Assembly (NCBI GenBank): GCA_964596395.1
Contig: CAZQSY010000006.1
Location: forward strand, 153-64,152
Reading direction: 5' to 3'
Length of the DNA: 64,000 nucleotides
Source: an uncultured Candidatus Saccharibacteria bacterium
GTDB taxonomy: Bacteria; Patescibacteriota; Minisyncoccia; Phycocordibacterales; UBA9973
Shown here: piece after piece, positions 4,831 to 62,887 of the stretch
Numbering within the stretch: the stretch's first letter is position 1
How the letters are laid out: every line of letters begins with the position of its first letter
Made by a program: the position numbers and the translations under genes
Notes under the pieces: generated by a model
The model's database searches: none
Told to the model about the DNA's origin: nothing
Seen by the model: the letters and a program-made list of their open reading frames with translations, nothing else

Positions 4831-4956
4831 CAGATTGTTTCTATCTGCGGCGGGTGGTCGCACTCACATAGGCACATATGTTGGAGTTTCGCCATCACCC
4901 GCTTCAAATGGGAAGAATCAAGCCCCGTCGCTCTAAAGCGACGGGGTTTTGTTTTT
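4831..4956 (+). ncRNA. candidate small RNA or tRNA trailer ending in a strong intrinsic terminator
   Basis: Extended -10 TGtTATAAT at 4816-4824; stem 4850-4856/4896-4902; terminator hairpin CCCCGTCGC-tctaaa-GCGACGGGG plus T-run at 4921-4956; no ORF. Confidence 0.3.
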
Positions 4957-5491: not shown

Positions 5492-7987
5492 ATGGCTTTT
5501 TTAAGCAGCATATTTGGTGATACCAGTGCGCATTTTGCCAATAAAGCTCGGGGAATTATAGCTAAAATAAACGACCTAGAAGGGGATTTTTCGGCTTTGC
5601 CGGATGAGGATTTTCCGAAAAAAACCGCCGAATTCAGGGAAATGCTAAAGAACGGGAAGACCGAAAACGACATCTTACCCGAGGCCTTCGCTCTGGTGCG
5701 GGAAGCCGCCAAGAGGACTTTAGGCGAGAGGCATTATGATGTACAGCTTATCGGCGGGATGGTGCTAGACCAGGGGAAAATTTCTGAAATGAAAACCGGC
5801 GAAGGCAAGACCTTGGTGGCGACCTTGCCGGCTTACTTGAACGCGCTTTCGGGCGAGGGTGTGCATATTGTCACCGTAAACGACTATCTGGCGAGGAGAG
5901 ACGCGGTTTTGATGGGACAGGTTTACAATTTTCTGGGCCTTTCCGTGGGCGTGATAAATTCGCAAAATGTTTCTTATCTGTACGATGCGAAACATACCGA
6001 AGAAGACAAAGAGCGAGACCAAGTGGGGGAATATAAAATTGTCTATGATTTTCTGAAACCGTGCACCCGCAAAGAAGCGTACGCCGCTGACATAACTTAC
6101 GGCACGAATCATGAGTACGGCTTTGATTATTTGCGCGACAATTTGGCAACCCGGGTTGAGGACCTGACGCAGAGGGGGCACAATTTCGCGATTGTGGACG
6201 AGGTGGACTCGATTTTGATAGACGAGGCGCGCACACCGCTTATAATTTCTTCGGCCTCGGCGGATTCGGGGGATTTTTACGTGAAATTTTCGCAAATTGC
6301 CAGACAGCTAAAGAGGGATACGGATTACGAGGTAGACGAGAAGCTTCGCGCAATCACACTGACGGATGCCGGCATCAGCAAGGCAGAGAATCTTTTGGGC
6401 ATAGAAAATATTTATACCGAAAAGGGCATAAAATATGTGCATCATCTGGAAACGGCGGTCAAAGCGCAGGCGCTTTTCGAGCGAGACAGGGATTATGTGG
6501 TGAAAGAAGGCGAGGTAATCATCGTGGACCCTTTTACCGGGCGGCTGCAGCCCGGCCGGCGCTGGAGCGAAGGCATACACCAAGCAATCGAGGCCAAGGA
6601 AGGAGTGAAAATTGAGAGAGAGACGAGATCTTCGGGTTCGATTACTTTCCAAAATTATTTCCGTTTTTATAAAAAACTTTCGGGTATGACCGGTACAGCG
6701 GCGACTTCGGCTGAGGAGTTTTTAAAAGTTTACGGCCTGGATGTGATTGTGGTACCGACGAACCGGCCGATGATACGTCGCGACCACGGGGACCTGATTT
6801 TTCAGACCGAGAAAGGCAAGTTTCAGGCCATTGCCAAAAAAGTGAAAGAACTCAATCAGAAAGGTCAGCCGGTATTAATCGGCACTATTTCGATTGAGAA
6901 AAACGAACTGCTCTCTGTATATCTAAAGCAGGAAGGCGTGCAGCATGTGATACTGAATGCCAAGAATCACGAGAAGGAAGGCGAGATTATCGCGCAAGCC
7001 GGCAAACGCGGGGCGGTGACGATTGCCACGAACATGGCCGGACGCGGAATCGACATAAAACTTGGCGGCAACCCTATCGTAAAAGAAGAATACGAATTCG
7101 TGAAAAGTGTGGGCGGGCTTTTCGTCCTCGGTACCGAACGGCACGAAGCCCGCCGCATTGACAATCAGCTGCGGGGACGTTCGGGCCGGCAGGGCGACCC
7201 GGGCGAGACACAGTTTTATGTTTCGCTTGAGGATGATTTGATGCGCGTTTTCGGTTCGGAGCGGATTAAGAATATGATGGGCAGGTTCGGAATTCCCGAA
7301 GATGTGCCGATAGACAACCGTTTCGTATCAAAGACGCTTGAGAGTGCGCAGGCGAAAATAGAGGGGTTTCATTTTGACGCGCGCAAGCACACGCTCGAGT
7401 ATGACGACGTGATGAATCATCAGCGCAATGTCGTGTATGACCGGCGCCGCAAGATGCTTTTCTCGGAAAAAGGGGAAATCGAGAATCTTTTGAATAAAAC
7501 TCTGGAGGGCCTAGAGGCTGAAGCAAAAGAAAGATTTGAGAAAATTATCAAGGAAAAAAGAGAAAAACTCGGCGAAGAAGCATTTTTTGAGACCGTTCGC
7601 CGGATCGCGCTTTATACCAATGACTCTCTTTGGATGGAGCATCTGGAAGAGATGGATTATCTACGAAGTTCGGTGAATTTGCGCGCTTACGGCCAGCGCG
7701 AACCGATTGTGGAATACAAGAAAGAAGGCCTATCGATGTTTAAGGCGATGGAAGAGGCGTTTAAAGAACAGGTCTTGTCGCTTATTGAAACGATTAATGT
7801 TGAACAGAAACCAAACTTGCAGGCCGAGGAAAAAGCGCCCAAGCAGACCTTAATCACGAGCCATAGCGAGCCCTCGGAATTAGGAGGGAAAAAGGAAAAT
7901 TTGCCGAAGCATGAAGCCAAAGTCGGCCGTAACGACCCGTGCCCGTGCGGAAGCGGTAAAAAATACAAGAAATGCCATGGTGCGTAA
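5492..7987 (+). CDS. secA: preprotein translocase ATPase SecA
   Basis: DEAD-motor motifs ([56 protein letters not shown]) and C-terminal zinc motif [14 protein letters not shown]; start at MAFLSS by alignment to SecA N-termini (track ORF begins at 5471). Confidence 0.95.
7956..7980 (+). repeat. 25-nt exact repeat, copy 1 (encodes the SecA zinc-finger tail)
   Basis: GTAAAAAATACAAGAAATGCCATGG is also present at 9821-9845. Confidence 0.9.
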
Positions 7988-7990
7988 GAG

Positions 7991-8380
7991 ATGAAAGAGC
8001 TCGAAAAGAAAATTTACAATCATCTGAAAGACAGGAACTGGCATAATTTGCGCCCGGTGGATTTGGCGAAATCAATTATGATAGAAGGTGCTGAACTATT
8101 GGAACTTTTTCAATGGGAAAATTTGCCGCTCCATGAAGTGAAAAAAAATAAAGAAAAGGTAGAGGAAATTAAGAACGAGCTTGCCGACGTGCTGATTTAT
8201 GCCATGGAAATGTCAGTTTTGCTCGGCCTTGATACTGAAAAAATCATAAAGAAAAAGCTAGCCCGCGTGGAGAAGAAATATCCGGCCAAATTAATAAAAT
8301 CGGCGAAACAAGAACCCGACAGTGATTTGAGTTTGTATTGGAAGATTAAAAAGGAACACAGGAAGAATAGGATAGCATAG
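7991..8380 (+). CDS. MazG-like nucleoside triphosphate pyrophosphohydrolase
   Basis: All-alpha MazG/dCTPase-type motif EGAELLELFQW...ELADVLIYAMEMSVLLGLD. Confidence 0.6.
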   Translation: MKELEKKIYNHLKDRNWHNLRPVDLAKSIMIEGAELLELFQWENLPLHEVKKNKEKVEEIKNELADVLIYAMEMSVLLGLDTEKIIKKKLARVEKKYPAKLIKSAKQEPDSDLSLYWKIKKEHRKNRIA

Positions 8381-8387
8381 AAGTATT

Positions 8388-8828
8388 ATGGCTTTTAAAC
8401 CAGACACAATTCGGGTAAAAGCAATGTGCCTAATTATTGATGGGGAGAAAGTACTTTTGGGCGAGGGCTACGATAAAGTAAGAAAAAAACATTTCTATAG
8501 GGTTTTGGGCGGGGGTATGGAATTTGGGGAAACTGCCGAGCAGGCGGTGCGAAGGGAAATTAAGGAAGAATTAAATTCTGAAATTGAAAACTTAAAATTT
8601 CTGAAAGCCCTAGAGAATATATTTACCTATGAAGGCATGAACGGGCACGAAATAACTTTCATGTTTAAGGGAGAATTGAAAGACAAAAGCCTGCTCAGAG
8701 AAGATTCTATCTTTATTGACGAAGGCGATTATTCTTTTGACGCTAAATGGGTTCCGGTTTCCGATATTCTGGAGAAGAAAATAACTTTGTATCCAAGCTG
8801 TGATTATAAAAAATTACTGAACCTATAA
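8388..8828 (+). CDS. NUDIX hydrolase
   Basis: Nudix box GGGMEFGETAEQAVRREIKEELN. Confidence 0.8.
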   Translation: MAFKPDTIRVKAMCLIIDGEKVLLGEGYDKVRKKHFYRVLGGGMEFGETAEQAVRREIKEELNSEIENLKFLKALENIFTYEGMNGHEITFMFKGELKDKSLLREDSIFIDEGDYSFDAKWVPVSDILEKKITLYPSCDYKKLLNL

Positions 8829-8834
8829 AGCAAA

Positions 8835-9296
8835 ATGCCAAGCAAAAGAGTTTTCACGCTTTGTACTATAATTGACGGCTCGAAGATTTTGCTTGGCAGG
8901 AAGAAAAAAGGTTTGGGTAAAGGGAAATGGAACGGCTTTGGCGGGAAGGTGGAGAAGGGGGAAACAATTAGAGAAACAGCAGTAAGGGAAGTGAAAGAAG
9001 AATGCGGGCTTTTGGTAAAGAACTTGAAGAAGGCAGGAGTTTTGGATTTTAAATTTGAGAATATCCGCGAAATTTTTCAGGTGCATTTTTTTTGGACAAG
9101 TGATTTCTCGGGCAAGCTCAAAGAAAGCCAAGAAATGAAGCCGAAATGGTTTGATATAGAAGATGTTCCCTACGAGAAAATGTGGCCAACTGACAAACAT
9201 TGGCTGCCGGTTTTGCTCAAGGGCGGTAAATTCAGGGGTCGGTTTCTCTTCGACAAAAATGAGGTTATACTAAAAGATGAATTAATAGAAACTTAA
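8835..9296 (+). CDS. NUDIX hydrolase (MutT/MTH1-like)
   Basis: Nudix box GFGGKVEKGETIRETAVREVKEECGL; WNGFGGK resembles MTH1-type enzymes. Confidence 0.8.
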   Translation: MPSKRVFTLCTIIDGSKILLGRKKKGLGKGKWNGFGGKVEKGETIRETAVREVKEECGLLVKNLKKAGVLDFKFENIREIFQVHFFWTSDFSGKLKESQEMKPKWFDIEDVPYEKMWPTDKHWLPVLLKGGKFRGRFLFDKNEVILKDELIET

Positions 9297-9301
9297 AAAA
9301 T

Positions 9302-9736
9302 ATGCAAAACGAAAAGGAAAAAATGCAGATGTTGGTTGTTTTGGCTTTGATTCGCGACAGAAAAGGAAAAATATTTCTGCAGAAGCGGCATGATTCTTTA
9401 ATACCAAGCGCTCACAACAAATGGGAATTCCCTGGTGGAAAAGTCAATTACGGAGAACGTCCCGATAAAGCTGTTGTACGGGAATGTTACGAAGAAACTG
9501 GTTTTAAGATAAAAGCATTGAGATTGTTACCTTACATTGCATCGAATGTTTGGAACAGGAACGATGGTAAAGAACACCATGCCCTAGTGTTGTGCTATGA
9601 AGCTAGGTTAGTAAAAAAGATTCCGAGACACTTGCACAGAAAAGTTTCTGAGGCTAAATGGTTTCCTGAAAAGGAGATTAAAAAATTAAATACACTTGCG
9701 GGTACAAGCGAGTTTATTAAGCTGTTTAAATATTAA
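9302..9736 (+). CDS. NUDIX hydrolase
   Basis: Nudix box EFPGGKVNYGERPDKAVVRECYEETGF. Confidence 0.8.
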   Translation: MQNEKEKMQMLVVLALIRDRKGKIFLQKRHDSLIPSAHNKWEFPGGKVNYGERPDKAVVRECYEETGFKIKALRLLPYIASNVWNRNDGKEHHALVLCYEARLVKKIPRHLHRKVSEAKWFPEKEIKKLNTLAGTSEFIKLFKY

Positions 9737-9805
9737 ACCCCGGTTTGTGCTACAATATTCAACATATGATAACGGCCGGCTTCCGAAAGGCAAGGCCTTT
9801 CGGAA

Positions 9806-10189
9806 ATGCGGAAGGAAACAGTAAAAAATACAAGAAATGCCATGGAGAGTAATAAGACAAAAATAGAAGAAAGAGGAGGAATTATTAGAAAAATCCGTGC
9901 CGGATGGAGTTTACTTAATTTGGAAGGTCGGGGAGAGGTTATTAAAGTGTACTACACCCCGGAAGATGAAGTGTTTGAAGATGATGGCCTTTCGCGCCAA
10001 GTAAGAGAGGAAATGGCGCAGTTGCCTGATTCTGTGAGGGATACGATTGAAAATGAAGGTAAGAAAATTTTATCTGAAGTTACTCAAAAAAGTTTTAAAA
10101 AAATCATTAAAGAAGCATCCATTGACGACCTGGAAAGATTTTCTAGAATCATTTCCAAAGTACTTTTAGAAGAAAGGTTTCAAAATTAA
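9806..10189 (+). CDS. hypothetical protein (N-terminus carries a copy of the secA 3' 25-mer)
   Basis: 127-aa ORF; the true start may be ATG 9851 (MESNK...). Confidence 0.4.
   Translation: MRKETVKNTRNAMESNKTKIEERGGIIRKIRAGWSLLNLEGRGEVIKVYYTPEDEVFEDDGLSRQVREEMAQLPDSVRDTIENEGKKILSEVTQKSFKKIIKEASIDDLERFSRIISKVLLEERFQN
9821..9845 (+). repeat. 25-nt exact repeat, copy 2
   Basis: Identical to 7956-7980. Confidence 0.9.
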
Positions 10190-20030: not shown

Positions 20031-20522
20031 ATGGGTTACGAAAAATCTAATAAATTGCACATAGTCACACCAGTTGCAGTAATCATGAGAAGTGATGGAC
20101 GCATTCTTTTGCTTAAAAGACGCGATGATGAAGTTGTTTACCCAGGGTTTTATACTTTTCCGGGCGGAAAAGTCGAGGGTAACGATACTATCAGCCAGAC
20201 CTTGATTAAAGAGGTAAAAGAAGAATGTGGCTTAGATTTAAAAACAGGTTTTATCCTGATAAAAGAAAAGGCGATTTTTCGACCCGATGGTCAAACTTCC
20301 AAATCACTCTCTTTTTTGTGTGAAGTAACCGACCCCGAAAAAGTTGTCTTGGATACTAAAGATTTTACTGATTTTAGATGGACCAATTTAGAGGAGTTGA
20401 AGACGATAAAACATGTGGGGATTGAGGCTGAATTTATAAAAGCCCGAGCTATTTACGACTCAAAAATTGATAGAAATTTATTTTTTACGGATACCGACCA
20501 AGTAGACTTTAGTAAAAAGTAA
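20031..20522 (+). CDS. NUDIX hydrolase
   Basis: Nudix box FPGGKVEGNDTISQTLIKEVKEECGL. Confidence 0.8.
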   Translation: MGYEKSNKLHIVTPVAVIMRSDGRILLLKRRDDEVVYPGFYTFPGGKVEGNDTISQTLIKEVKEECGLDLKTGFILIKEKAIFRPDGQTSKSLSFLCEVTDPEKVVLDTKDFTDFRWTNLEELKTIKHVGIEAEFIKARAIYDSKIDRNLFFTDTDQVDFSKK

Positions 20523-22469: not shown

Positions 22470-23675
22470 ATGAAAATAAAAATAATTTTTCTTCTCTTCC
22501 TGCTTGCCGCGGCTTTCGGCGCGTCCGCCCAATCCGGCGCGCCCGAAGACGACATCATAATGAATACGCTCGGGTACAGAATCCTAGGGCAAAGTGCTTA
22601 CGTTTTCAGGGGATACTATTCAGGCAATTATTTGAGAAAGGGTTTGACTGTTTATTTTGAATACAAAAAAGACGACGCTAATTTTAACTCTGGCGCACAG
22701 AAGACCATAGTGATTGAAGACAGTGGCGCGGATGAGTCCAAAGATTTTTATATAAGTCCAGAGCTCAACATGTTTTCGGTTTATCATTTTCGCGCGGTCG
22801 GTTATTTTAATGACAACCCGAATGTGAAATTTTACGGGGGCACTATTTCTGTAAATACCGGCACAGGTGTGAGCCCTTCTGGCTCTTACCCGTACACTCC
22901 GTCGGTGGAAAACGGAGGATGGAGCAGTTGGACGCTGTGGACGGCTTGTTCGGCGGTGGGGGAAGGGGCGACGGGTACGCGCTCCAGAAGTCGTACTTGC
23001 ACGAATCCGATACCGTCGGCGGGAGGCAGGGGTTGTTACGGGTCTAACGGAGGAGAGATGTTTGGAAAAGAAACAGTGTCCAAACCTTGTCAAAACGGAA
23101 AATGGGGCGCGTGGACTCCGCCGGCAAGCTCTTGTACCCCTCAATGCAATCAAAGGTGTTCGGATATCTATACCCGCCAATGCGATAGTCCTCCTCCTTC
23201 AAACGGCGGGCGCACTTGCCCGGGGGCCAGTACTGATTTGAGGTTTACAGAAGGGGCGCCCTGCGGTATACCCTTAGGCGGGAATGGAGGAGGAAATCCT
23301 CCCGTTACTACACCGCCCACCGGCACTCCCATTACAACACCGACTTCGGCTTCTGCTCCAACAGGGGGTCTGGTCACTTGCGCTGGTGATAACGTTAATT
23401 GCGGCTTTAAAGAACTGATGGAAATGCTAAAGAATGTCATAGATTATCTTTTTAAATACCTCGTTTTGCCGATTGCCGCCCTGATGTTCGCTTATGCCGG
23501 GTTTGAAATGGTTTTTTCGGGGGGCGTGCCTGAAAAAAGACAAAAAGCCATAAGTATATTCACGAATGTGGGCATCGGTTTGGTACTCGCCGCTGGGGCA
23601 TTTGTCATTATCAGAACAGTACTTTCAATTCTCGGCGCACAACCGGGTTATACCGACTGGTTTGGAATTTTTTAG
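22470..23675 (+). CDS. secreted protein with two thrombospondin-type-1-like repeats, a Pro/Thr linker and a C-terminal VirB2/TrbC-like T4SS-pilin domain
   Basis: Signal peptide; WSSWTLWTACSAVGEGATGTRSRSRTC and WGAWTPPASSCTPQCNQRCS... match the TSP1 W-x2-W...CS-x2-CG...R-x-R-x-C pattern; PPVTTPPTGTPITTPT linker; C-terminal LVLPIAALMFAYAGFEMVFSGG...IFTNVGIGLVLAAGAFVII homologous to the next four genes. Confidence 0.55.
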   Translation: MKIKIIFLLFLLAAAFGASAQSGAPEDDIIMNTLGYRILGQSAYVFRGYYSGNYLRKGLTVYFEYKKDDANFNSGAQKTIVIEDSGADESKDFYISPELNMFSVYHFRAVGYFNDNPNVKFYGGTISVNTGTGVSPSGSYPYTPSVENGGWSSWTLWTACSAVGEGATGTRSRSRTCTNPIPSAGGRGCYGSNGGEMFGKETVSKPCQNGKWGAWTPPASSCTPQCNQRCSDIYTRQCDSPPPSNGGRTCPGASTDLRFTEGAPCGIPLGGNGGGNPPVTTPPTGTPITTPTSASAPTGGLVTCAGDNVNCGFKELMEMLKNVIDYLFKYLVLPIAALMFAYAGFEMVFSGGVPEKRQKAISIFTNVGIGLVLAAGAFVIIRTVLSILGAQPGYTDWFGIF

Positions 23676-25288: not shown

Positions 25289-25579
25289 ATGCTCGGTTTA
25301 TTCTTTCCAAACACAGCTTACGCCAGTGTTGATACGTTCGTCGCGAACATCAACAGGATGATAATTAATCCGTTGATAAAGTTGCTCTTTGCGCTGGCGA
25401 TTGCGTATTTTCTGTGGGGGGTGTACAAGTATTTTGCCAACCCCGAAAGCGAAGAAGACAGGACACAAGGCAGACAGCACATGCTCTGGGGCATTATTGG
25501 TATCGTGGTAATGATGGGGGTATTCACGATTATCAACCTTATTACTTCGACCTTCGGTTTGCCCGCGCAAAATCCGTAG
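25289..25579 (+). CDS. VirB2/TrbC-like T4SS-pilin-like small membrane protein
   Basis: IKLLFALAIAYFLWGVYKYFANPESEEDRTQGRQHMLWGIIGIVVMMGVFTII. Confidence 0.55.
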   Translation: MLGLFFPNTAYASVDTFVANINRMIINPLIKLLFALAIAYFLWGVYKYFANPESEEDRTQGRQHMLWGIIGIVVMMGVFTIINLITSTFGLPAQNP

Positions 25580-25602
25580 CAAAATTGGAAAGATGTATGT
25601 GA

Positions 25603-25642
25603 ACAAAAAAACGCCCGGCTCTCGCCGGGCGTTTTTGTTTTT
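25603..25642 (+). terminator. bidirectional intrinsic terminator; 34-bp direct repeat copy 1
   Basis: AAAAAAACGCCCGGCtctcGCCGGGCGTTTTT; the 34-mer AACAAAAAAACGCCCGGCTCTCGCCGGGCGTTTT recurs at 28483-28516. Confidence 0.75.
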
Positions 25643-25720
25643 AAAAAGTTTTATATAAAAAATAAATTCCGTTAGATACTGTTCAAATCAATATCTCTAA
25701 TAGGATAAATCACTCTGAAA

Positions 25721-25759
25721 TAGAAAAACGGCAGGTCCACCAAGGTGAATCTGCCGTTT
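25721..25759 (-). terminator. Rho-independent terminator for the island operon (minus strand)
   Basis: AAACGGCAG-(16 nt)-CTGCCGTTT followed on the minus strand by TTTTT. Confidence 0.6.
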
Positions 25760-25784
25760 GCCGTTCCCTGCTTTAGGGGAGCGG

Positions 25785-26306
25785 CTAATAAAACAGCTCG
25801 ACACCCGTCGCGGACGAATCCGCGGGGGTGACGAGAATCGTGCCGGGGCGCTGCTTTGGCCCCACTACATCGACTCCCGGCGTGTCGATGTAGCTTGTCC
25901 CGTCGGGCAAACCGATCCATGTCGGCCCGCCTTTCGGGAAGAACTTCACGGTTCGCCGTACCGTGAAGCGCAGGGTGTCCCCGAACCCTGCAAATTCGTA
26001 CAAAGTGAACCCGCCTGGGGGGACGATGGTTCCAGCGGGGGTTGTTACGGTAGCCGCTTGGGGAGCGGTTGCCGTGTCGCTCTGGGGGGATTTGGAGCTG
26101 GGGACGATTTTGCTCTTGGTTTCAGGTTCTGGTTTGAAGCATGTGTAAACACAGCTTCCAAACCAGAAAATCAGGCCTAGAGCAATCGCCCCCATCAGGA
26201 AGTTTTCCCAAGGGAATTTCTTACCCGACTTCCTGTAACTTCCCAATACCAGCAAGAGAATCATGCCGGCGATGAGAAGTATGAACGCTACACGGGCGTA
26301 CATCAT
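25785..26306 (-). CDS. membrane-anchored protein, possible NfeD-like partner of the SPFH protein
   Basis: One N-terminal TM helix, Pro/Thr/Ala linker, beta-rich C-domain; 4-nt overlap with the upstream SPFH gene. Confidence 0.4.
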   Translation of the reverse strand: MMYARVAFILLIAGMILLLVLGSYRKSGKKFPWENFLMGAIALGLIFWFGSCVYTCFKPEPETKSKIVPSSKSPQSDTATAPQAATVTTPAGTIVPPGGFTLYEFAGFGDTLRFTVRRTVKFFPKGGPTWIGLPDGTSYIDTPGVDVVGPKQRPGTILVTPADSSATGVELFY

Positions 26307-27349
26307 TTTTTATCATCTCCTTTCTCCGGTGGTTTTTGGCCACCGCCAACAGGAAGGACGGGTGGGGCACCTGCACCGTCCACCAGAGTTGTGAGCTTCG
26401 ACTCTGGTCCCGCCAGGCTTTCGGCGCGGAGGGCGTCGGCCACAGCCCTGGCCAGAACATCTCCAGATGCGCCAGATTTGGCCAGTTCGGCAACGGTTTC
26501 GCGAATGCGTGCGCCGCGGGCCTTCGCAAGGCGTTCCTGTGCTGCCGCCTGGCCCTCAGCCTCGGCCATCACTCCCTTTGCTTTCGCTTTTGCGACTGCC
26601 TCGGCCTGCATGGCTTGCTTAATTGTCTCGTCGCTCGGGTTGTATTGAGCAACAGAGACGGCAACAAGACGGGGGCCTACCTGCCCAATGAGTTCTGTAT
26701 TGAGGGGTCCAGAGGAGTCCTTGAGAGATTTTAGGATTCCACTTTCCCCTTTGTCGGCCTTGATAAATTCATCAAGGTCAAACCCCTTCAACACATCGTT
26801 CACCGAAGCGCGGATGATGGACCCTGCAAGTTCGAAGAACTTGCCTTTAAGTTGAAAAACCGGAAGATAGGGGTCCACTATCTCCATTTTTGCGACGAGC
26901 AGTAGGTCGACCGACTGCCGGTCCTTCAACTCCACCGCCCTGAGGACAAATGGTCTCGGAAACGCAAAACGGAGAGACGAGACCATCTCCTCTCCGCCTT
27001 CCGTTATCCAATCCTCCGGCCCTTTGCCAGCCGGATTCTCCTTCTCCTTGGTGATAAGGAAGGAGTGAATGGACAAAAATGGCGGGATCCCAATCCAATA
27101 TATTCCAATGGACGGGAAATCCAACCAGTGCCTCTCGGGTTGTGTAATCGAGGATTCGAATTGCCCGGCACTAGACAAGACGAAACCCCTGACATCATAG
27201 ATTATCCTCCAGGGGCTCTCGCCCCTGACGATAAACTTGATATCCCCGCCCTGGACTCGCGTCCAGAACAGATCGAGCCCAGATAGTGCATATGCGAAAA
27301 ACGGCAATATGACTATCACGAGCCCTAAATAAATCAATAGCTCTAACAT
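26303..27349 (-). CDS. SPFH/band-7 flotillin-like (YqiK-like) protein
   Basis: N-terminal TM helix; SPFH core (DLLLVAKMEIVDPYLPVFQLKG, SVNDVLKGFDLDEFIK) and C-terminal Ala/Glu-rich coiled coil (AEAVAKAKAKGVMAEAEGQAAAQERLAKARGA); start placed at MLELLIYLGL (track ORF extends to 27424). Confidence 0.75.
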   Translation of the reverse strand: MLELLIYLGLVIVILPFFAYALSGLDLFWTRVQGGDIKFIVRGESPWRIIYDVRGFVLSSAGQFESSITQPERHWLDFPSIGIYWIGIPPFLSIHSFLITKEKENPAGKGPEDWITEGGEEMVSSLRFAFPRPFVLRAVELKDRQSVDLLLVAKMEIVDPYLPVFQLKGKFFELAGSIIRASVNDVLKGFDLDEFIKADKGESGILKSLKDSSGPLNTELIGQVGPRLVAVSVAQYNPSDETIKQAMQAEAVAKAKAKGVMAEAEGQAAAQERLAKARGARIRETVAELAKSGASGDVLARAVADALRAESLAGPESKLTTLVDGAGAPPVLPVGGGQKPPEKGDDKK

Positions 27350-27523
27350 CTTGCCTCCTTGTTTTGTTTTTTTGACTTCAGTTTGTTGGCTCGAAAGATT
27401 AGGCACAATCTGCCAAATCAACAAACCAAGTCGTCATTGTCAAGGTACATTCTTACCCCACAGGCAAGGCCTATGGGGTGGCGGGACTCCCGCTCACCTA
27501 TATATTATAGCATTTACAAACCA

Positions 27524-27552
27524 AAAAGTCAAGTCAAATCTTGACTTTTTTC
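27524..27552. terminator. bidirectional intrinsic terminator between the regulator and the SPFH operon
   Basis: AAGTCAAG-tcaaat-CTTGACTT flanked by an A-run and a T-run. Confidence 0.55.
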
Positions 27553-27712
27553 TCTCAAATGTCTTTATTTTCCAACCTTTTTTAGAAACTGTCAGTTAAA
27601 CTCGTACGAACAGCAAAAAGTCCATCTTACGCGCTAACCGTAGTTTATCCGCAAAATATCCGCCAAAACCAATCTCATTAAAAACATCACCTTAAAACTC
27701 CACCCAATTTCC

Positions 27713-27730
27713 CTACAATATACTGTAGCA
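27713..27730. promoter_or_regulatory. operator-like palindrome CTACAATATACTGTAGCA (site 1)
   Basis: Identical 18-mer to site 2; related to the perfect palindrome at site 3. Confidence 0.5.
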
Positions 27731-27812
27731 AATACCCTGTAAGGCAGTTTTTAAAAAACAACCCACGCTAAAACATACCCCGAAAGAACTCCCCAAAAAA
27801 TAATCAAATTTA

Positions 27813-27830
27813 CTACAATATACTGTAGCA
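27813..27830. promoter_or_regulatory. operator-like palindrome CTACAATATACTGTAGCA (site 2)
   Basis: Identical to site 1, 100 bp away. Confidence 0.5.
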
Positions 27831-27911
27831 GATTATGGTGAAGCTTTTGCAGACGATAAAAGACGTAATATACAAAGATCAGAGAAATAAAATAAAAAAG
27901 AAAAAACTTTT

Positions 27912-28319
27912 TTATTTCTTTGAGCTTTTCTTCCAGTACTTTTTCCCGTATTTAGGCGGCATAAACCCCCACAACAGCAAAATATCCTCAACAATTTTCA
28001 GAATATCGGTCTTTTCTTTTTCGGAAACTTGAAGTATGGTGTCGTATTTTCCGATTTCCAAATTCAAAGACATCCTGGCAACGGTCGTAGGGCTGACCTT
28101 GAGCACGTCCGCGATTTTGTCTTGAGGCGTTTCGCTTTGAAGCATTAGGATAATGGCCAGACGCTTAGCCAGCATGATTTTTTCCGTTTTGGTAAAGAGC
28201 TCCTGCATTACCTCTTTGGCGAATTTTCTACTGTGAGCTTTTTCAAAAACAGCCAAAAATTTTTCCAGCAATTTTCCTAAAAGCTTCGGTTTTATTTTTC
28301 TTTTCGAAACGTGCGGCAT
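27912..28319 (-). CDS. TrpR/YerC-YecD-like small HTH regulator
   Basis: KRLAIILMLQSETPQDKIADVLKVSPTTVARMSLNL parallels the YerC segment QRLQVAKMIKQGYTYATIEQESGASTATISRVKRSL; start trimmed to MPHVSK (ATG at 28319). Confidence 0.55.
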   Translation of the reverse strand: MPHVSKRKIKPKLLGKLLEKFLAVFEKAHSRKFAKEVMQELFTKTEKIMLAKRLAIILMLQSETPQDKIADVLKVSPTTVARMSLNLEIGKYDTILQVSEKEKTDILKIVEDILLLWGFMPPKYGKKYWKKSSKK

Positions 28320-28363
28320 AGGGTTTGTTATTCTTGGAATTTTATCTCCCAGTATTATGTTAT

Positions 28364-28385
28364 TTGCTACAATATATTGTAGCAA
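28364..28385. promoter_or_regulatory. 22-bp perfect palindrome TTGCTACAATATATTGTAGCAA (site 3), 45 nt upstream of the regulator start
   Basis: Perfect dyad overlapping the likely promoter of the TrpR-like gene; same half-sites as sites 1 and 2. Confidence 0.6.
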
Positions 28386-28482
28386 ATCTAAGATTGGGTG
28401 CAAGGGGCTGGTGCAAGCAGGCGTAAACAAAACAATATGAATTATGCAAGTGATTTATGTTGCCGTTGATTAAAAAATAGAA

Positions 28483-28516
28483 ACAAAAAAACGCCCGGCT
28501 CTCGCCGGGCGTTTTG
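28483..28516 (-). terminator. intrinsic terminator; 34-bp direct repeat copy 2
   Basis: Identical 34-mer to 25603-25636; terminates the minus-strand gene 28538-29347. Confidence 0.7.
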
Positions 28517-28537
28517 GTTTGTGTCTTACGGTGCGAG

Positions 28538-29347
28538 TTACGCGTGTTTCAGCGGCTTTGACTGATAATCTTCTTCGCCGTACACGTAGCGGAAGAGGAA
28601 GATTATGCCGAAGATTATAACAATCGCCATGAGCCACTGCATAAGACCGGAAGGCAGGAAGCTGTCGTAGCCGAGCATCGCGTTCGCGGTCACACCTTCG
28701 TATTCTTCGTTAATGTCGTCTTTGGTTTCTATCCGGTTGGACGTTTTCTTGACGGCAGTATTTGTATTTGCCGTAGTTGTGACAGCGGCGGTTTTGTTTA
28801 CGCTGTAGCTCGTGCCCGAGGTTTTGTAATTGTAATTCGTATCCGTGCTGTAATTACTGTAGCCGTAGCTCGTTTTGCTCTTGGTGTCTTTGACTGTATC
28901 TGCGTTTGCTTTGATAGAGAAGGAAGCCGCGTTCGAGTATTCTCCCTCGTCGCGGTTGTAGACCGAGACGTAGAATTCTGCCTGGTTGTCGGCGATTTCG
29001 CCCGGGCGGATATCAAACTGCATATGTCTCGGGTCTATGAACCTGCTCGAGTGGTTTATGCCGTCGATTTTTACCACCGAGCTCTCGTTGAAATTGTCGC
29101 CGGTAATCGTGATTCTCACCCTTTCCGTAAGTTCATCTGCGCCTTTCGGGTTGATGTAGGCGATGTAAGGTGTATCTTCTTCACCTTCGCGCACGTACCT
29201 GCGTAAATAAGCCCCGTTGTCGTCGGTTGCGAAATAATATTTATCGGCGGCCTGAGCCCTGGTAGCCATGAAGGTAATCAATCCGAAGCCCAAAATAACC
29301 AATATTTCAAAGCCCCAAATTATGAATTTTTTATTTACCTTAAACAT
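28538..29347 (-). CDS. cell-surface protein with IPT/TIG-like domain, Ser/Thr/Asn/Tyr-rich region and C-terminal TM anchor
   Basis: Signal peptide; VRITITGDNFNESSVVKIDGINHSS IPT-like strand pattern; low-complexity STNY region; C-terminal TM helix. Confidence 0.5.
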   Translation of the reverse strand: MFKVNKKFIIWGFEILVILGFGLITFMATRAQAADKYYFATDDNGAYLRRYVREGEEDTPYIAYINPKGADELTERVRITITGDNFNESSVVKIDGINHSSRFIDPRHMQFDIRPGEIADNQAEFYVSVYNRDEGEYSNAASFSIKANADTVKDTKSKTSYGYSNYSTDTNYNYKTSGTSYSVNKTAAVTTTANTNTAVKKTSNRIETKDDINEEYEGVTANAMLGYDSFLPSGLMQWLMAIVIIFGIIFLFRYVYGEEDYQSKPLKHA

Positions 29348-29384
29348 ATTTAAATTATAGCATACTAGGGCTTAAAAGTCAAGG

Positions 29385-29466
29385 TGCCCGAGGTGGGGGT
29401 CGAACCCACATCCCTTGCGAGACACGATTTTAAGTCGTGCGCGTATACCAATTCCGCCACTCGGGC
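29385..29466 (-). tRNA. tRNA-Leu (anticodon TAA)
   Basis: Reverse complement GCCCGAGTGGCGGAATTGGTA...; anticodon loop CTTAAAA; long variable arm; T-arm GGGTTCGACCCCC. Confidence 0.85.
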
Positions 29467-29507
29467 TTTTTAGAAAACATATTTCATGTTTCCTGTTTTG
29501 CAAAGCA

Positions 29508-29584
29508 AAACCAAAACCCGAGCGTCGGCCTCCTCACTTCGTTCGGATGAGAAACAAAGCAGTTTGTTTTTCATCCACTCGGGC
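29508..29584 (-). terminator. structured terminator after tRNA-Cys (long hairpin plus U-run on the minus strand)
   Basis: Outer stem CCCGAG/CTCGGG, inner stem GGATGAGAAACAAA/TTTGTTTTTCATCC, then TTTTGGTTTTG on the transcribed strand; the 5' 10-mer GCCCGAGTGG duplicates the tRNA-Leu 5' end. Confidence 0.45.
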
Positions 29585-29598
29585 ATTGCTTCGCAAAG

Positions 29599-29670
29599 AG
29601 GCCTGGGTGGGAATCGCACCCACGTATAAGAGTTTTGCAGACTCTTGCCTTACTACTTGGCGACCAGGCC
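29599..29670 (-). tRNA. tRNA-Cys (anticodon GCA)
   Basis: Reverse complement GGCCTGGTCGCCAAGTAGTAAGGCA...; anticodon loop CTGCAAA; discriminator U73. Confidence 0.8.
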
Positions 29671-29759
29671 TTGTTTTTTTAAAAGAAATAAACAAGATAT
29701 AATCTAACATTTTTTTCACAACTTTCAAAATAAAAAAGAATGTGTTAAATTTAAAAAAA

Positions 29760-29832
29760 CCGCCCGTAGCTCAGCTGGTAGAGCAACTCCCTCTTAAGGA
29801 GATGGTCCTCAGTTCGATTCTGAGCGGGCGGA
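29760..29832 (+). tRNA. tRNA-Lys (anticodon CTT)
   Basis: CCGCCCGTAGCTCAGCTGGTAGAGC; anticodon loop CTCTTAA; T-loop TTCGATT. Confidence 0.8.
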
Positions 29833-29852
29833 CAGTTAACCGAAATTGATTG

Positions 29853-29936
29853 GCCGAGGTGGCGAAATTGGCAGACGCACTTGCCTTAGGAGCAAGCGAG
29901 AGAAATCTCTTGGGAGTTCAAATCTCCCCCTCGGCA
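29853..29936 (+). tRNA. tRNA-Leu (anticodon TAG)
   Basis: GCCGAGGTGGCGAAATTGGCAGACGC; anticodon loop CTTAGGA; long variable arm; acceptor GCCGAGG/CCTCGGC. Confidence 0.85.
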
Positions 29937-29940
29937 CCGC

Positions 29941-33691: not shown

Positions 33692-34219
33692 ATGAAATTT
33701 GAAGCGCTAAGCGGTAAAAGATCATACGGAATAAAAAAAGGTGCTAAAGCGGCTGTGATAACGGCAATGATGCTAGCTCCATTCGCAAAGGACGTTTTGG
33801 CTCAAGACAAAAACACAAACCCGGGTTACTCGGCTAACAGCGGGGAAATAAAACCGATTGATTTCGAATATAGCGCCCTACTGGATAGCACTGAAGCATA
33901 CGGTAAAAAACTGAAGCTAGAAGAAAACCCTTTAAGTATAAAAGGTTTGGAATTAGCGCTTTCTCAGGCGAATATAAAATTTACTTTTCCCGAATACAAA
34001 AAATGGGCGGATTTAGCAAAAGAGAATGGATGGACAACAGCACACCTCGCGTTTGAAAGATTTAGACAGCCGGTTGGAGTCACATCGCAACCTTCTGGAC
34101 TTCATAGAGTTCCTGAACGTATACCAAAAAATAAATATACAAATTTGGAAACAAGCGGTAATACTGGTGTAAAGAAGGTAGAGCTTAAAAAACCTTTTCC
34201 CAGAAACAAAAAGAAATAG
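33692..34219 (+). CDS. secreted hypothetical protein
   Basis: Signal-peptide-like N-terminus; no recognised domain. Confidence 0.4.
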   Translation: MKFEALSGKRSYGIKKGAKAAVITAMMLAPFAKDVLAQDKNTNPGYSANSGEIKPIDFEYSALLDSTEAYGKKLKLEENPLSIKGLELALSQANIKFTFPEYKKWADLAKENGWTTAHLAFERFRQPVGVTSQPSGLHRVPERIPKNKYTNLETSGNTGVKKVELKKPFPRNKKK

Positions 34220-58125: not shown

Positions 58126-58248
58126 AATTTGCGAGCGGTGCTATCAGCAAGAAGTGTATTAATTTTCTAGAAAGTGGTACAATTAAGTTAAACCCCGTCG
58201 TTCGCGAACGACGGGGTAAAGGTCGAGCATTAGTAAATATCACTCTAT

Positions 58249-61131: not shown

Positions 61132-61169
61132 GCGCAAAAAGCCCCAAATAATGTCGGGGCTTTTTGCGC
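61132..61169. terminator. 14-bp palindromic intrinsic terminator after dnaK
   Basis: GCGCAAAAAGCCCC-aaataatgtc-GGGGCTTTTTGCGC. Confidence 0.65.
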
Positions 61170-61195
61170 TATCCTTTGTATGTCATAATAATATC

Positions 61196-62887
61196 ATGCA
61201 GGCAGAAACCCGTATTTGTCAAAATTGTAGGCAAAACTTCACCATTGATTCCGACGATTTCGGCTTTTACGAAAAAATCCACGTCCCTCCGCCGACGTTT
61301 TGCCCGGAGTGCCGTAGACAAAGAAGATTGGCCTGGCGGAACGATTTTAATTTTTATAATCGTAACTGCGACTTATGTAAAAGAAATATTATCTCAGTCT
61401 ATTCTCCCGATAATCCCCAGGTAATCTATTGCAACAAATGCTGGTGGAGCGATAAATGGGACCCGAAAGCTTACACCATGGATTTTGATTTTTCAAGACC
61501 CTTTTTTGAGCAGTTTGCCGAGTTCCGGATGAAGGTTCCCGCCCTGGCGCTTTTCAACGATAATAATATTGGCAGCGAAAACTGCGAGTACACCCAAGAT
61601 TTTGCTTTCGGAAAAAATTGCTATATGTGCATGGTGGCTTGGAAGATACAGGATTGTATGTATTTCTGTTACGGAGCAGATGGAAAAGAGTTAGTTGATT
61701 CGATGGGTATATTCGATACGAGTCAAGGGCTTTATGAGGCGATGTATTCTGGCAAATGTTTCGGCTCTAGAAACATACATTATTCTTCTGCTTTGATAAA
61801 CTGTGCTTTCTGTTATGATTGCGACGGCTGCGAATACTGTTTTATGTGCGTGAATTTGAAAGGGAAAAAATATTGTGTTTTAAACAAGCAGTATAGCAGG
61901 GAAGAATATGAGAAGATTTTACAATCATATCAACTAAACACTTGGAGTGGAGTTCAAGAAGCAGAAAAGGAATTTTGGAGATTTGTGCTTACACAACCTA
62001 GGAAATTTGTGTTTTTCAGGAATTGTAAAAATTGCACGGGTAACAATTTAGTGAATAGCAAGAATGCGAAAAATGTTTTCCATGGACGAAGGTCAGAGGA
62101 TTCAAAATATTTGGAAAATGGCGATACTCAAAAAACCAGTTATGATTTGTCGGTCGGTGGAGAGCTCACGGAATGTTATGAAGGGCTTACCCCAGACCAT
62201 TCAAACAGAGCTTTATTTGTTATTTACACATGGAGGTGCGTCGATGTAGCTTACTCAGAATCTTGCCAATCTTCCCAGAATTGTTTCGGATGTATTGGGC
62301 TTAAACATGGAGAATATTCTATTTTCAATAAACAATATCCTAAGGAAGAATATCTAGAACTCAAGGAGAAAATTATAGAGCACATGAAAAAAACGGGAGA
62401 GTGGGGAGAATTTTTCCCAATGAAATTCTCGCCTTTTGCATACAACGAATCCATGGCGAATTTATCTTTCCCGATGACAGAAGAAGAGGTGATAAATTTT
62501 GGCTTGCGTTGGCAGGATAATTTACAACGAACGAGGGGAAGGACAACGTTAGAAAGTATCCCAGACAGTATTGATAATGTACCAGAAAATATTACGGACG
62601 AAATTTTAGAATGTAAAAAATGCGAAAGAAATTACAAGATAACACCAAACGAATTTTCTTTTTATAAAAAGTGGCGGATTCCCGTCCCTAGGCATTGTTT
62701 CTTTTGTCGTTTAGAAAAACGTTTTTCACTTCGAACGCCTTCTCGCCTTTGGTACCGTTCCTGCATGTGTGAAAAAGGAAATCACGGGCATGCTGGAAAA
62801 TGTCCGAATGAATTCGAAACCAGTTATGCTCCTGATCGGCCGGAAATAGTTTACTGCGAACGGTGTTACCAGCAGGAGGTTTACTGA
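61196..62887 (+). CDS. very cysteine-rich protein (~50 Cys in 563 aa) with duplicated terminal zinc-ribbon-like modules; function unknown
   Basis: N-terminal CQNCRQNFTIDSDDFGFYEKIHVPPPTFCPECRRQRRLAWRN and C-terminal CKKCERNYKITPNEFSFYKKWRIPVPRHCFFCRLEKRFSLR are paralogous; internal CYDCDGCEYCFMC and CQSSQNCFGC clusters; start trimmed to MQAETRIC. Confidence 0.6.
   Translation: MQAETRICQNCRQNFTIDSDDFGFYEKIHVPPPTFCPECRRQRRLAWRNDFNFYNRNCDLCKRNIISVYSPDNPQVIYCNKCWWSDKWDPKAYTMDFDFSRPFFEQFAEFRMKVPALALFNDNNIGSENCEYTQDFAFGKNCYMCMVAWKIQDCMYFCYGADGKELVDSMGIFDTSQGLYEAMYSGKCFGSRNIHYSSALINCAFCYDCDGCEYCFMCVNLKGKKYCVLNKQYSREEYEKILQSYQLNTWSGVQEAEKEFWRFVLTQPRKFVFFRNCKNCTGNNLVNSKNAKNVFHGRRSEDSKYLENGDTQKTSYDLSVGGELTECYEGLTPDHSNRALFVIYTWRCVDVAYSESCQSSQNCFGCIGLKHGEYSIFNKQYPKEEYLELKEKIIEHMKKTGEWGEFFPMKFSPFAYNESMANLSFPMTEEEVINFGLRWQDNLQRTRGRTTLESIPDSIDNVPENITDEILECKKCERNYKITPNEFSFYKKWRIPVPRHCFFCRLEKRFSLRTPSRLWYRSCMCEKGNHGHAGKCPNEFETSYAPDRPEIVYCERCYQQEVY

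Follow-up and report, generated by a model that had tools for sequence, protein, structure and literature searches.

Here, we describe a 2.85-kb module that is enclosed by two identical direct repeats within a 64-kb stretch of DNA (hereafter the window) from an uncultured member of the Paceibacteria. The module contains three genes, all on the minus strand and transcribed in the order TrpR-like regulator, SPFH (Band 7) protein and membrane partner of the SPFH protein. Both flanking genes, the last gene of a T4SS-pilin-like cluster on the left and the gene of an IPT/TIG-domain surface protein (TIG) on the right, read into the segment, each of them meeting one copy of the repeat (Table 1). An original prediction, made from the sequence of the window, had recognised here a self-contained module on the minus strand, and this is confirmed: all parts are present, the module has its own promoter and the partner gene has its own terminator.

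One terminator at both borders of the module

The repeat, AACAAAAAAACGCCCGGCTCTCGCCGGGCGTTTT, is a 34-mer that occurs twice as an exact copy, both times on the plus strand. The similarity reaches 39 nucleotides (nt) with one mismatch (38/39) and then ends abruptly on both sides, and a match to the pair was never seen in dinucleotide-preserving shuffles (0/100). The existence of identical 34-bp direct repeats had been predicted correctly, only with coordinates one base too high. A third copy of the hairpin core, CGCCCGGC-N4-GCCGGGCG, was not found in the 64 kb with up to three mismatches allowed. Strong perfect GC-rich hairpins are scarce in the window in any case, a scan having returned seven loci of which two are the 34-mer copies. 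Two Logan contigs of run SRR15237813 match window positions 25606-26506 and 28486-29413 exactly, and each of them ends 4 nt inside a copy. As this is how a k=31 graph behaves at a true repeat, the repeat is no artefact of one assembly.

Both copies have the build of an intrinsic terminator, namely a GC-rich stem, a short loop, a T-tract and a stop codon just upstream. The stem comprises 12-13 pairs including 8 G-C pairs and closes a loop of 4 nt; as RNA, the hairpin has a folding energy of -23.7 kcal/mol on the plus strand (z -6.4) and of -22.7 kcal/mol on the minus strand (z -5.3). Each hairpin is preceded by an A-tract and followed by a T-tract, which gives both copies T-tracts on both strands: on the plus strand the hairpin of the left copy runs into TTTTTGTTTTT, and on the minus strand that of the right copy runs into TTTTTTTGTTT. 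The prediction that each copy is an intrinsic-terminator hairpin is thus borne out by folding energies and T-tracts, and the 34-mers are copies of one complete bidirectional Rho-independent terminator. The same 34-mer in the same orientation serves opposite senses at the two ends of the segment. The left copy would end plus-strand transcription coming from the pilin cluster, while the right copy would end minus-strand transcription coming from the TIG gene, and it is clear from the sequence that the repeats should now act as terminators insulating the module from both inward-facing neighbours.

The 34-mer has no match in JGI metagenome contigs (241 million metagenome records), and its 26-nt core has none in viral contigs. 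In an Rfam scan of the window only tRNAs rose above threshold; sub-threshold matches to small RNAs at the 34-mers stem from the terminator hairpin. We considered the bidirectional shape as a sign that the terminator had formerly been shared by convergent genes and dropped this idea, as in relatives such A/T-flanked bidirectional hairpins are found behind co-directional genes, too.

Another two terminators, at window positions 4923-4946 and 58193-58216, are related to each other but have diverged: they have the stem CCCCGTCG[C/T]T in common, apart from a compensatory change, and differ in their loops.

A conserved slot with changing content

Is the site of the module empty in related genomes? 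Contigs carrying homologues of the SPFH gene are labelled Candidatus Paceibacterota, Paceibacteria or Nomurabacteria (metagenome-assembled genomes), and seven lineages among them are syntenic with the window (L003, L010, L012, L016, L017, L019 and L020), each contig spanning part of the gene order. Pooled, this order reads DUF4446, IF2, RbfA, tRNA cluster, TIG-like gene, SPFH, partner, convergent pilins, SBP, methyltransferase, GyrA, Lactamase_B and S1-domain gene. GyrA is 81-84% identical to that of the window in the relatives that have it on their contig, and between the same relatives the surface proteins evolve fast (TIG ~29%, partner 15-33%). In all seven, an SPFH-partner operon lies between the TIG gene and the pilin cluster, and none of them (0/7) offers an empty site. 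The operon is therefore ancestral to the slot and no newcomer. The original prediction had pictured an insertion into a terminator site that relatives would carry empty; with all seven relatives filled, this simple picture fails by its own criterion.

What is specific to the window lineage at this slot is the AT-rich TrpR-like gene, not the GC-rich operon. Among the syntenic relatives, a TrpR-like gene at this place is found only in the window lineage; it is absent by tblastn in five relatives and from the gene calls of L019 and L020. Direct repeats of at least 16 nt at the borders (at least 20 nt for L020) are likewise missing in six of the seven relatives, L019 being the exception. Thus, both the TrpR-like gene and the repeats are absent in most relatives. 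The interval between partner and pilin genes differs as well: in the window it holds two terminators, with an AT-rich spacer of 90 nt between the operon terminator (25726-25759) and the left 34-mer, whereas the relatives have a single hairpin there.

The content of the slot changes between lineages. By their flanks, L003 and L017 are the closest pair (GyrA 92% over the C-terminal 330 residues, SBP 71%, methyltransferase 77%), and yet their SPFH proteins are only 55% identical. When L003:868-2722 is compared with L017:5773-7600, nucleotide homology runs through the TIG gene, is almost nil across the cassette and resumes 32 nt past the partner stop codon. The GC content at third codon positions (GC3) in L003 is 0.59 for SPFH and 0.70 for the partner, against ~0.32 in the other genes (GyrA 0.32). 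This is a xenologous replacement confined to the slot. More generally, the GC3 of the cassette is clearly above that of the flanks in five of the seven relatives, the excess being small in L010 and not judgeable in L017; in the window the excess is clear for the partner only. We had also regarded the pair L010-L012 (SPFH 87%, SBP 58%) as evidence of transfer, which we dropped: at the nucleotide level the cassette is 75% and the flanks are 70% identical, compatible with vertical descent.

In L019 the cassette is multiplied. At L019:780-5950 (ERZ1292638 NODE_5133) three SPFH-partner cassettes stand in tandem, with a mutual identity of only 27-34% between their SPFH proteins. All three have the same promoter in front and the same block of 66-75 nt behind, composed of the motif ATCGCGCTGGCCACGCA and a terminator. 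The block copies after cassettes 1 and 3 are identical over ~66 nt, and the full repeat after cassettes 1 and 2 measures 132 nt with 97% identity. The pilin-side terminator is thus repeated at the cassette borders, which is the same topology as that of the 34-mers in the window.

Between partner stop codon and terminator, five lineages share a motif ATCGCG-N2-3-GGCCA(A)CGCA (at L003:2731, L016:3917, L017:~7610 and L020:~5045, and in three copies in L019), which is absent from the window. Its implied reading frame differs between L003 and L019; hence it is no small open reading frame.

The composition of the segment is atypical, but not decisive. The original prediction spoke of a GC-rich insertion and proposed GC content, codon usage and tetranucleotides as its check. 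SPFH (54.2% GC) and partner (56.7%) are GC-rich, ranking as the top two among 60 window genes; the SPFH gene does not reach the predicted ~60%, however, and the inter-repeat segment as a whole has 47.1% GC compared with 46.3% for the window, the TrpR-like gene having 40.4% and the non-coding stretches 34-37%. By tetranucleotides, the 1.57-kb SPFH-partner block stands out more than any other part of the window (99.6th percentile), and its dinucleotide signature lies at the 98th percentile. The codon usage of SPFH, in contrast, is native-like: both its GC3 of 0.587 (80th percentile) and its codon bias (53rd percentile) are ordinary, the former falling in the range of GyrA (0.629), IF2 (0.596) and TIG (0.626). 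The excess GC of SPFH is therefore located in codon positions 1 and 2, i.e. in amino-acid composition. Only the partner has an extreme GC3, which at 0.678 is the highest in the window.

Origin of the identical repeats

How did one terminator come to stand at both borders? Tentatively, and at slightly less than even odds, we read the identical repeats as the scar of a recent recombination in a conserved cassette slot that recombines at terminators. The slot between the TIG gene and the pilin cluster of Paceibacteria always holds at least one SPFH-partner cassette, its content changing by recombination, and in a single recent event the terminator that now serves the pilin gene would have been copied to the opposite end of the module. 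We infer that this copying accompanied an insertion or rearrangement; the DNA concerned could be the whole module or at least its TrpR part, and as for the enzymology, a circle with one repeat could have integrated homologously in the Campbell manner, or break repair could have produced a templated copy. The insulated module is composed of two independent units, namely the TrpR-like gene with its flanking palindromes and the SPFH-partner operon with promoter, structured leader and terminator. Support for a recombining slot comes from the sharply bounded, exact 34-mer that has no third copy, the strong hairpins with T-tracts in both directions that stand 22 nt behind the stop codons of both inward-reading genes, the independent assembly, the synteny, the replacement in L003, the array in L019, the tetranucleotide outlier and the doubled terminator between partner and pilin genes.

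Several points weigh against this reading. A/T-flanked bidirectional terminators are usual in these genomes, and so the shape of the repeat itself is no evidence of a shared target. With the window counted, six of eight lineages have no border repeats. The collections searched hold neither an empty site nor a relative with more than 57% SPFH identity, and the event itself is unobserved. Further, the scenario requires an earlier loss of the resident cassette or a second deletion step. The SPFH operon may be vertically inherited here, since the GC3 and codon bias of SPFH are ordinary and its identities follow the same pattern across relatives as those of SBP and methyltransferase. Finally, an old tandem duplication in L019, followed by gene conversion between the intergenic regions, could account for the repeats there.

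The alternative that survives best, which we still consider rather unlikely, keeps the SPFH-partner operon vertical and takes only a TrpR block of ~970 bp (28515 to 27546) as new, placed between SPFH promoter and TIG by a local rearrangement in this plastic tRNA/TIG/pilin region. At the junction, template switching or microhomology-mediated repair would have inserted a copy of 34-39 nt templated by the nearby pilin terminator, which would have been kept since TIG had been separated from its old terminator. The TrpR-like gene is the sole gene missing from the slot in all relatives, and the right repeat copy sits exactly at the outer junction of the block. The hairpin that carries the -35 element of the SPFH promoter (27516-27545) resembles the terminator-promoter junction found right behind TIG in L016, L017, L019 and L020, and might once have been the terminator of TIG. 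The native-like codon usage of SPFH and its identities, congruent with those of the flanking genes, fit equally well, as do signs of local shuffling, i.e. a TrpR-like gene in the IF2-RbfA-tRNA neighbourhood of L082 and L086 and a tRNA pair flipped in the window relative to L017. A rearrangement of the TrpR block leaves unexplained, however, why two terminators and a spacer of 90 nt stand in the partner/pilin interval instead of the single hairpin of the relatives, and why SPFH-partner is the top tetranucleotide outlier; moreover, we know of no documented case of such templated junction insertions in these organisms.

A strict version of the original prediction, in which a mobile element of 2.85 kb has integrated at a terminator by site-specific recombination, leaving the 34-mers as attL and attR, and a recombinase encoded elsewhere acts in trans, appears improbable to us. 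Its attraction is the resemblance to islets bounded by attL/attR at gene 3' ends or terminators: identical repeats of tens of bp surround a self-contained module, the repeat restores the 3' end (here the terminator) of each flank, and the enclosed genes are compositionally atypical. The repeats are identical at the borders (34/34; 38/39 when extended), sharply bounded and coincide with the 3' terminators of the flanking genes, and both the tandem accretion of cassettes at the same site in L019 and the cassette replacement in L003 would suit such an element. Unlike these islets, the segment is only 2.85 kb long, encodes no integrase, excisionase or transposase (its products being the TrpR-like regulator, the SPFH protein and the membrane partner), and occupies a site that is filled by homologous genes in every relative, no empty attB being known. 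The neighbours are syntenic core genes, and no recombinase was found among the neighbouring window proteins scanned or the recorded Pfam assignments of the relatives' syntenic genes, the rest of the genome lying outside the scope of this search. A homologous 34-mer is lacking in the 241 million metagenome records. A transposon or insertion sequence fits no better. There is no transposase inside, and an inverted-repeat search found no terminal inverted repeats at 25636 and 28481, just inside the duplication. Transposon target duplications range from 2 to 15 bp, and a duplication of 34-39 bp is far longer.

A phage or defence island was also considered and dropped. PADLOC has no match for the SPFH protein, the partner, the TrpR-like protein or the L019 paralogues, and NCBIfam is blank for SPFH and partner. 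In IMG/VR viral contigs we found no homologue of the SPFH or TrpR-like protein, in keeping with the absence of the 34-mer core from viral contigs, and the INPHARED phage genomes contain no match for SPFH. In sum, the acquired cassette of the original prediction retains its exact, bounded repeats, its outlier operon and a slot that turns over in relatives, while the operon is ancestral and no recombinase accompanies it. The locus is a recombinase-free, repeat-bounded islet in a conserved slot of a Candidate Phyla Radiation (CPR) genome, and as such a variant on a known theme.

Even less probable, in our view, is that the repeats are maintained for RecA-mediated unequal crossing-over, which would switch a surface-associated module on and off or vary its copy number in the population. 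A perfect identity of 34 bp may suffice for homologous recombination at low frequency, the same slot has expanded in copy number in L019, and the locus encodes fast-evolving surface proteins (TIG and partner, at the identities given above). Against this stand the lack of evidence for variants in the available data, the irreversibility of a deletion and the six of eight lineages without such repeats. Chance, convergence of two terminators or an assembly artefact is effectively refuted: A/T-flanked GC hairpins are a common terminator type in these genomes, but the shuffles gave no such pair, loop and A/T-tracts are identical too, beyond what structural selection would fix, and both junctions recur in independent Logan contigs, with synteny backing the assembly.

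Are the terminators, then, handles that are used repeatedly? In a more far-reaching version of the recombining slot, which we regard as a long shot, Paceibacteria would keep an integrase-free slot beside their pilin genes in which SPFH-partner modules are swapped, stacked and lost via terminators that serve as portable recombination handles; separately, the palindrome-flanked TrpR-like gene would be a new relocatable or self-insulating regulatory unit. If the handle idea were true, this would amount to a terminator-based integron analogue for surface and membrane modules, with the window as a fresh event and L019 as an array of three. As in integron cassette arrays, there is a fixed slot with variable or multiple cassettes and hairpin-bearing, near-identical repeats, found between cassettes in L019 and at both ends of the module in the window. 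Unlike in integron arrays, no IntI-type integrase was found (none at the window locus, in L019 or in L020), the cassettes have their own promoters and leaders, and the repeats are canonical intrinsic terminators.

CPR bacteria (Patescibacteria) have small genomes, in which classical mobile elements are thought to be scarce, and the diversification of their surface and membrane is poorly understood. If the slot indeed recombines at terminators, it would provide a simple, recombinase-independent route to variation in gene content in epibiotic bacteria and would single out SPFH-partner as a module of fast turnover, probably facing a host or phage. If the repeats are the scar of a local rearrangement instead, they are a minor structural detail of one metagenome-assembled genome. 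The by-products, i.e. the TrpR palindrome unit, the three-cassette array of L019 and the replacement in L003, may outweigh the repeat itself.

The enclosed units and their surroundings

The features of the module and its flanks are collected in Table 1.

Table 1. Features between the pilin cluster and the TIG gene (window positions)
Feature	Position	Strand	Remarks
pilin96, last gene of T4SS-pilin-like cluster, 96 amino acids (aa)	25289..25579	+	Pfam T4SS_pilin, E 4.7e-9; runs towards segment
Left repeat copy	25602..25640 (34 nt exact 25602-25635)	either	bidirectional intrinsic terminator, 22 nt past pilin stop codon
Own terminator hairpin of SPFH-partner operon	25726..25759	-	-19.6 kcal/mol, z -4.4; followed by TTTTTCTATTT on minus strand
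Partner gene, 173 aa	25785..26306	-	start codon overlaps SPFH stop codon
Divergent SPFH (Band 7) gene, 348 aa	26303..27349	-	Pfam Band_7, 28 bits vs cut-off 23.6
5' leader of SPFH mRNA, ~148 nt	27350..27497	-	box CCTTGACAA and long hairpin; presumed transcription start taken from promoter
SPFH promoter TTGACT-17-TGcTATAAT	27532-27504	-	11/12 consensus positions plus extended -10
A/T-flanked hairpin upstream of SPFH promoter	27516-27545	-	-12.4 kcal/mol; 3' arm holds -35 element
Third palindrome copy, core CTACAATATACTGTAG	27705..27733	both	second copy downstream of TrpR-like gene
Second palindrome copy	27805..27833	both	first copy downstream of TrpR-like gene; equals downstream site of other loci
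Weak AT-rich hairpin over TrpR-like stop codon	27875..27932	-	-11.5 kcal/mol, z -1.5, not significant
TrpR-superfamily regulator gene, 135 aa	27912..28319	-	Pfam Trp_repressor PF01371, 40.8 bits vs cut-off 27
Perfect 26-nt palindrome ATTTGCTACAATATATTGTAGCAAAT	28362..28387	both	43 nt upstream of TrpR-like start; 94 nt past right 34-mer
Right repeat copy	28482..28520 (34 nt exact 28482-28515)	either	minus-strand terminator of TIG gene, 22 nt past its stop
IPT/TIG-domain surface protein gene, 269 aa	28538..29347	-	Pfam TIG, E 2.2e-6; runs towards segment

The SPFH protein belongs to the SPFH/Band 7 superfamily by profile, fold, N-terminal membrane anchor and C-terminal coiled coil. Its predicted layout consists of an N-terminal transmembrane helix (residues 2-24), an alpha/beta SPFH core and a coiled-coil helix of ~50 residues (241-291). 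The structural model has a mean confidence (pLDDT) of 65 with a confident core, and in Foldseek it matches HflK/C, stomatin, prohibitin, flotillin, QmcA and the major vault protein with probability 1.0. In sequence, similarity to solved or characterised members is marginal (E 0.07 to Pyrococcus stomatin). Homologues are rare: only 13 were found among 5.8 billion protein clusters, the nearest ones being 55% identical by BLASTP (56-57% in a multiple alignment), and exact look-ups of the window protein with either start codon returned no record. We found no literature on SPFH proteins in Patescibacteria. To judge from fold and topology, the protein most likely assembles, like other SPFH proteins, into an oligomeric cage or scaffold that is anchored in the membrane.

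In all relatives, the SPFH gene is preceded by the same promoter, TTGACTTTTT-N-TAnAAT. The leader layout is kept across eight lineages (the window and the seven syntenic relatives): the promoter, TTGACTTTTT-N12/13-TAnAAT, is followed ~25-45 nt downstream by a box cTTTGACAA and then by a long hairpin. The sequence of this hairpin varies between lineages while its pairing is kept, and several lineages add a GC hairpin at the ribosome-binding site. The leader matches no Rfam family, and its conserved layout makes it a candidate cis-regulatory RNA.

The partner is predicted to have two transmembrane helices at its N-terminus, followed by a disordered linker rich in Pro, Ser and Thr and, at the C-terminus, a beta domain of ~70 aa. 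AlphaFold2 gives confident helices at residues 2-27 and 33-57, the remainder staying below a pLDDT of 40, so that this single-sequence model is unusable for the C-terminal domain. The protein belongs to no Pfam, NCBIfam or PADLOC family, and a word-indexed search returned only the protein itself; positional homologues with 15-33% identity are present in all relatives. The C-terminal domain (window 25785-26000, residues ~100-172) matches single-domain membrane proteins as well as repeats of large proteins. The latter are 507-1998 aa long with 4-12 matched stretches, and two of them carry cadherin-like, Big_9 or He_PIG domains, which suggests that the C-terminal domain is an exposed Ig-like module. 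From fold and topology, we speculate that the translationally coupled two-helix partner probably exposes this small beta domain outside the cell.

The arrangement recalls the SPFH-NfeD operons (E. coli QmcA-YbbJ, B. subtilis YuaF-FloT, Pyrococcus stomatin with its protease partner), in which an SPFH-fold protein is likewise translationally coupled to a small membrane partner, and whose QmcA and stomatin structures, like HflK/C, match the SPFH model of the window. In contrast to these, the window partner has no NfeD signature, the order is SPFH and then partner, and the C-terminal domain resembles cadherin-like/Big_9 repeats. An NfeD identity of the partner was rejected, as ten partner homologues gave no match at E <= 1 and a profile search of the PDB none at all. 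This rejection rests on sequence; a structural likeness to the NfeD OB-fold is outside its reach with a model below pLDDT 40.

The TrpR-like protein shares the Trp_repressor helix-turn-helix with the TrpR superfamily (TrpR, YerC/YecD, HisR), but stays below the NCBIfam cut-offs for TrpR (TIGR01321, 30.4 vs 67.25) and YerC/YecD (TIGR02531, 16.4 vs 42.2). The palindrome upstream of its gene holds TGCTACAAT, an extended -10 element, on both strands and is likely the promoter and autoregulatory site of the gene, its distance of 43 nt from the start codon agreeing with the upstream site of the family; a palindrome over the own promoter, suggesting autoregulation, is a further likeness to the superfamily. 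A second palindrome just downstream of the gene, which occurs family-wide, is not. The window has three copies of the palindrome, compared with 0.13 expected from shuffles.

Is this a property of the slot or of the regulator? We found 259 homologues of the TrpR-like protein in Paceibacteria, at 46-65% identity and in varying contexts; in L021, for example, the gene lies between transketolase and ribulose-phosphate epimerase and in L024 between threonyl-tRNA synthetase and GyrB. SPFH, TIG or pilin genes were found within 3 kb of it at none of 86 loci elsewhere. Both L021 and L024 have the same palindrome on both sides of the gene. When 120 nt on either side of the gene were compared at 50 metagenomic loci, a 16-mer was common to the two flanks, with two mismatches at most, in 48 of them (controls, 3/48). 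The palindrome of this unit measures 20-24 bp, its central ATATAT being constant while the arms co-vary between lineages. The upstream copy mostly lies 25-48 nt before the start codon, and the downstream copy is usually located between convergent genes, the downstream neighbour being convergent in 28 of 35 cases. One full-text literature search returned no description of such a palindrome-gene-palindrome layout. The 'operator copies' of the original prediction are thus real, but not specific to SPFH: the three palindromes are the standard flanks of the TrpR-like gene plus one extra copy, and consequently give no indication of a control of SPFH by the regulator. Between the last palindrome and the SPFH promoter there are 173 nt, and this promoter is conserved in relatives that have no regulator. 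The palindrome-flanked gene may be a new self-insulating or relocatable regulatory unit, and its layout provides a testable regulatory motif.

As for the flanking genes, pilin orthologues with ~50% identity adjoin the partner gene in all relatives. In L003, L016 and L017, positional orthologues of TIG align over most of the protein with 28-30% identity, while the match in L010 comprises the C-terminal 57 residues only. TIG has no relative among the GTDB representative genomes, and TIG and the partner are found on record only on short Logan contigs of one run.

The four-tRNA cluster between RbfA and TIG (Cys, Leu-taa, Lys and Leu-tag; window 29383-29938) is rearranged among lineages. In the window, tRNA-Lys and tRNA-Leu(tag) are on the opposite strand to Cys and Leu-taa, while all four are co-oriented in L017. 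In L082 and L086, a TrpR-like gene lies between tRNA-Leu(taa) and tRNA-Lys, inside the IF2-RbfA-tRNA cluster. The strand flip and this position of the TrpR-like gene indicate a neighbourhood prone to local rearrangement.

On the other side of the slot, a 401-aa open reading frame (window 22470-23675) combines a C-terminal T4SS_pilin domain with a long Cys/Trp-rich N-terminal part that contains W-S-x-W-like strings. A thrombospondin-like W-S-x-W repeat is unsupported here, Pfam seeing the pilin domain only.

A NUDIX hydrolase gene (window 20031-20522) lies between GyrA and the methyltransferase and has 36.6% GC and a GC3 of 0.335, compared with a mean GC3 of 0.525 for the window. GyrA and methyltransferase are directly adjacent in L003, L010 and L012, the contigs with both genes, and tblastn found no NUDIX homologue at this locus in five relatives. 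As a candidate for a lineage-specific foreign insertion, this gene makes a clearer case than the repeat-bracketed segment. Further compositional outliers of the window are AT-rich genes with a GC3 of 0.30-0.48 (7991-10189, 520-978, 33692-34219 and 61151-62887), and tetranucleotide outlier windows lie at ~7500-9000 and 61250.

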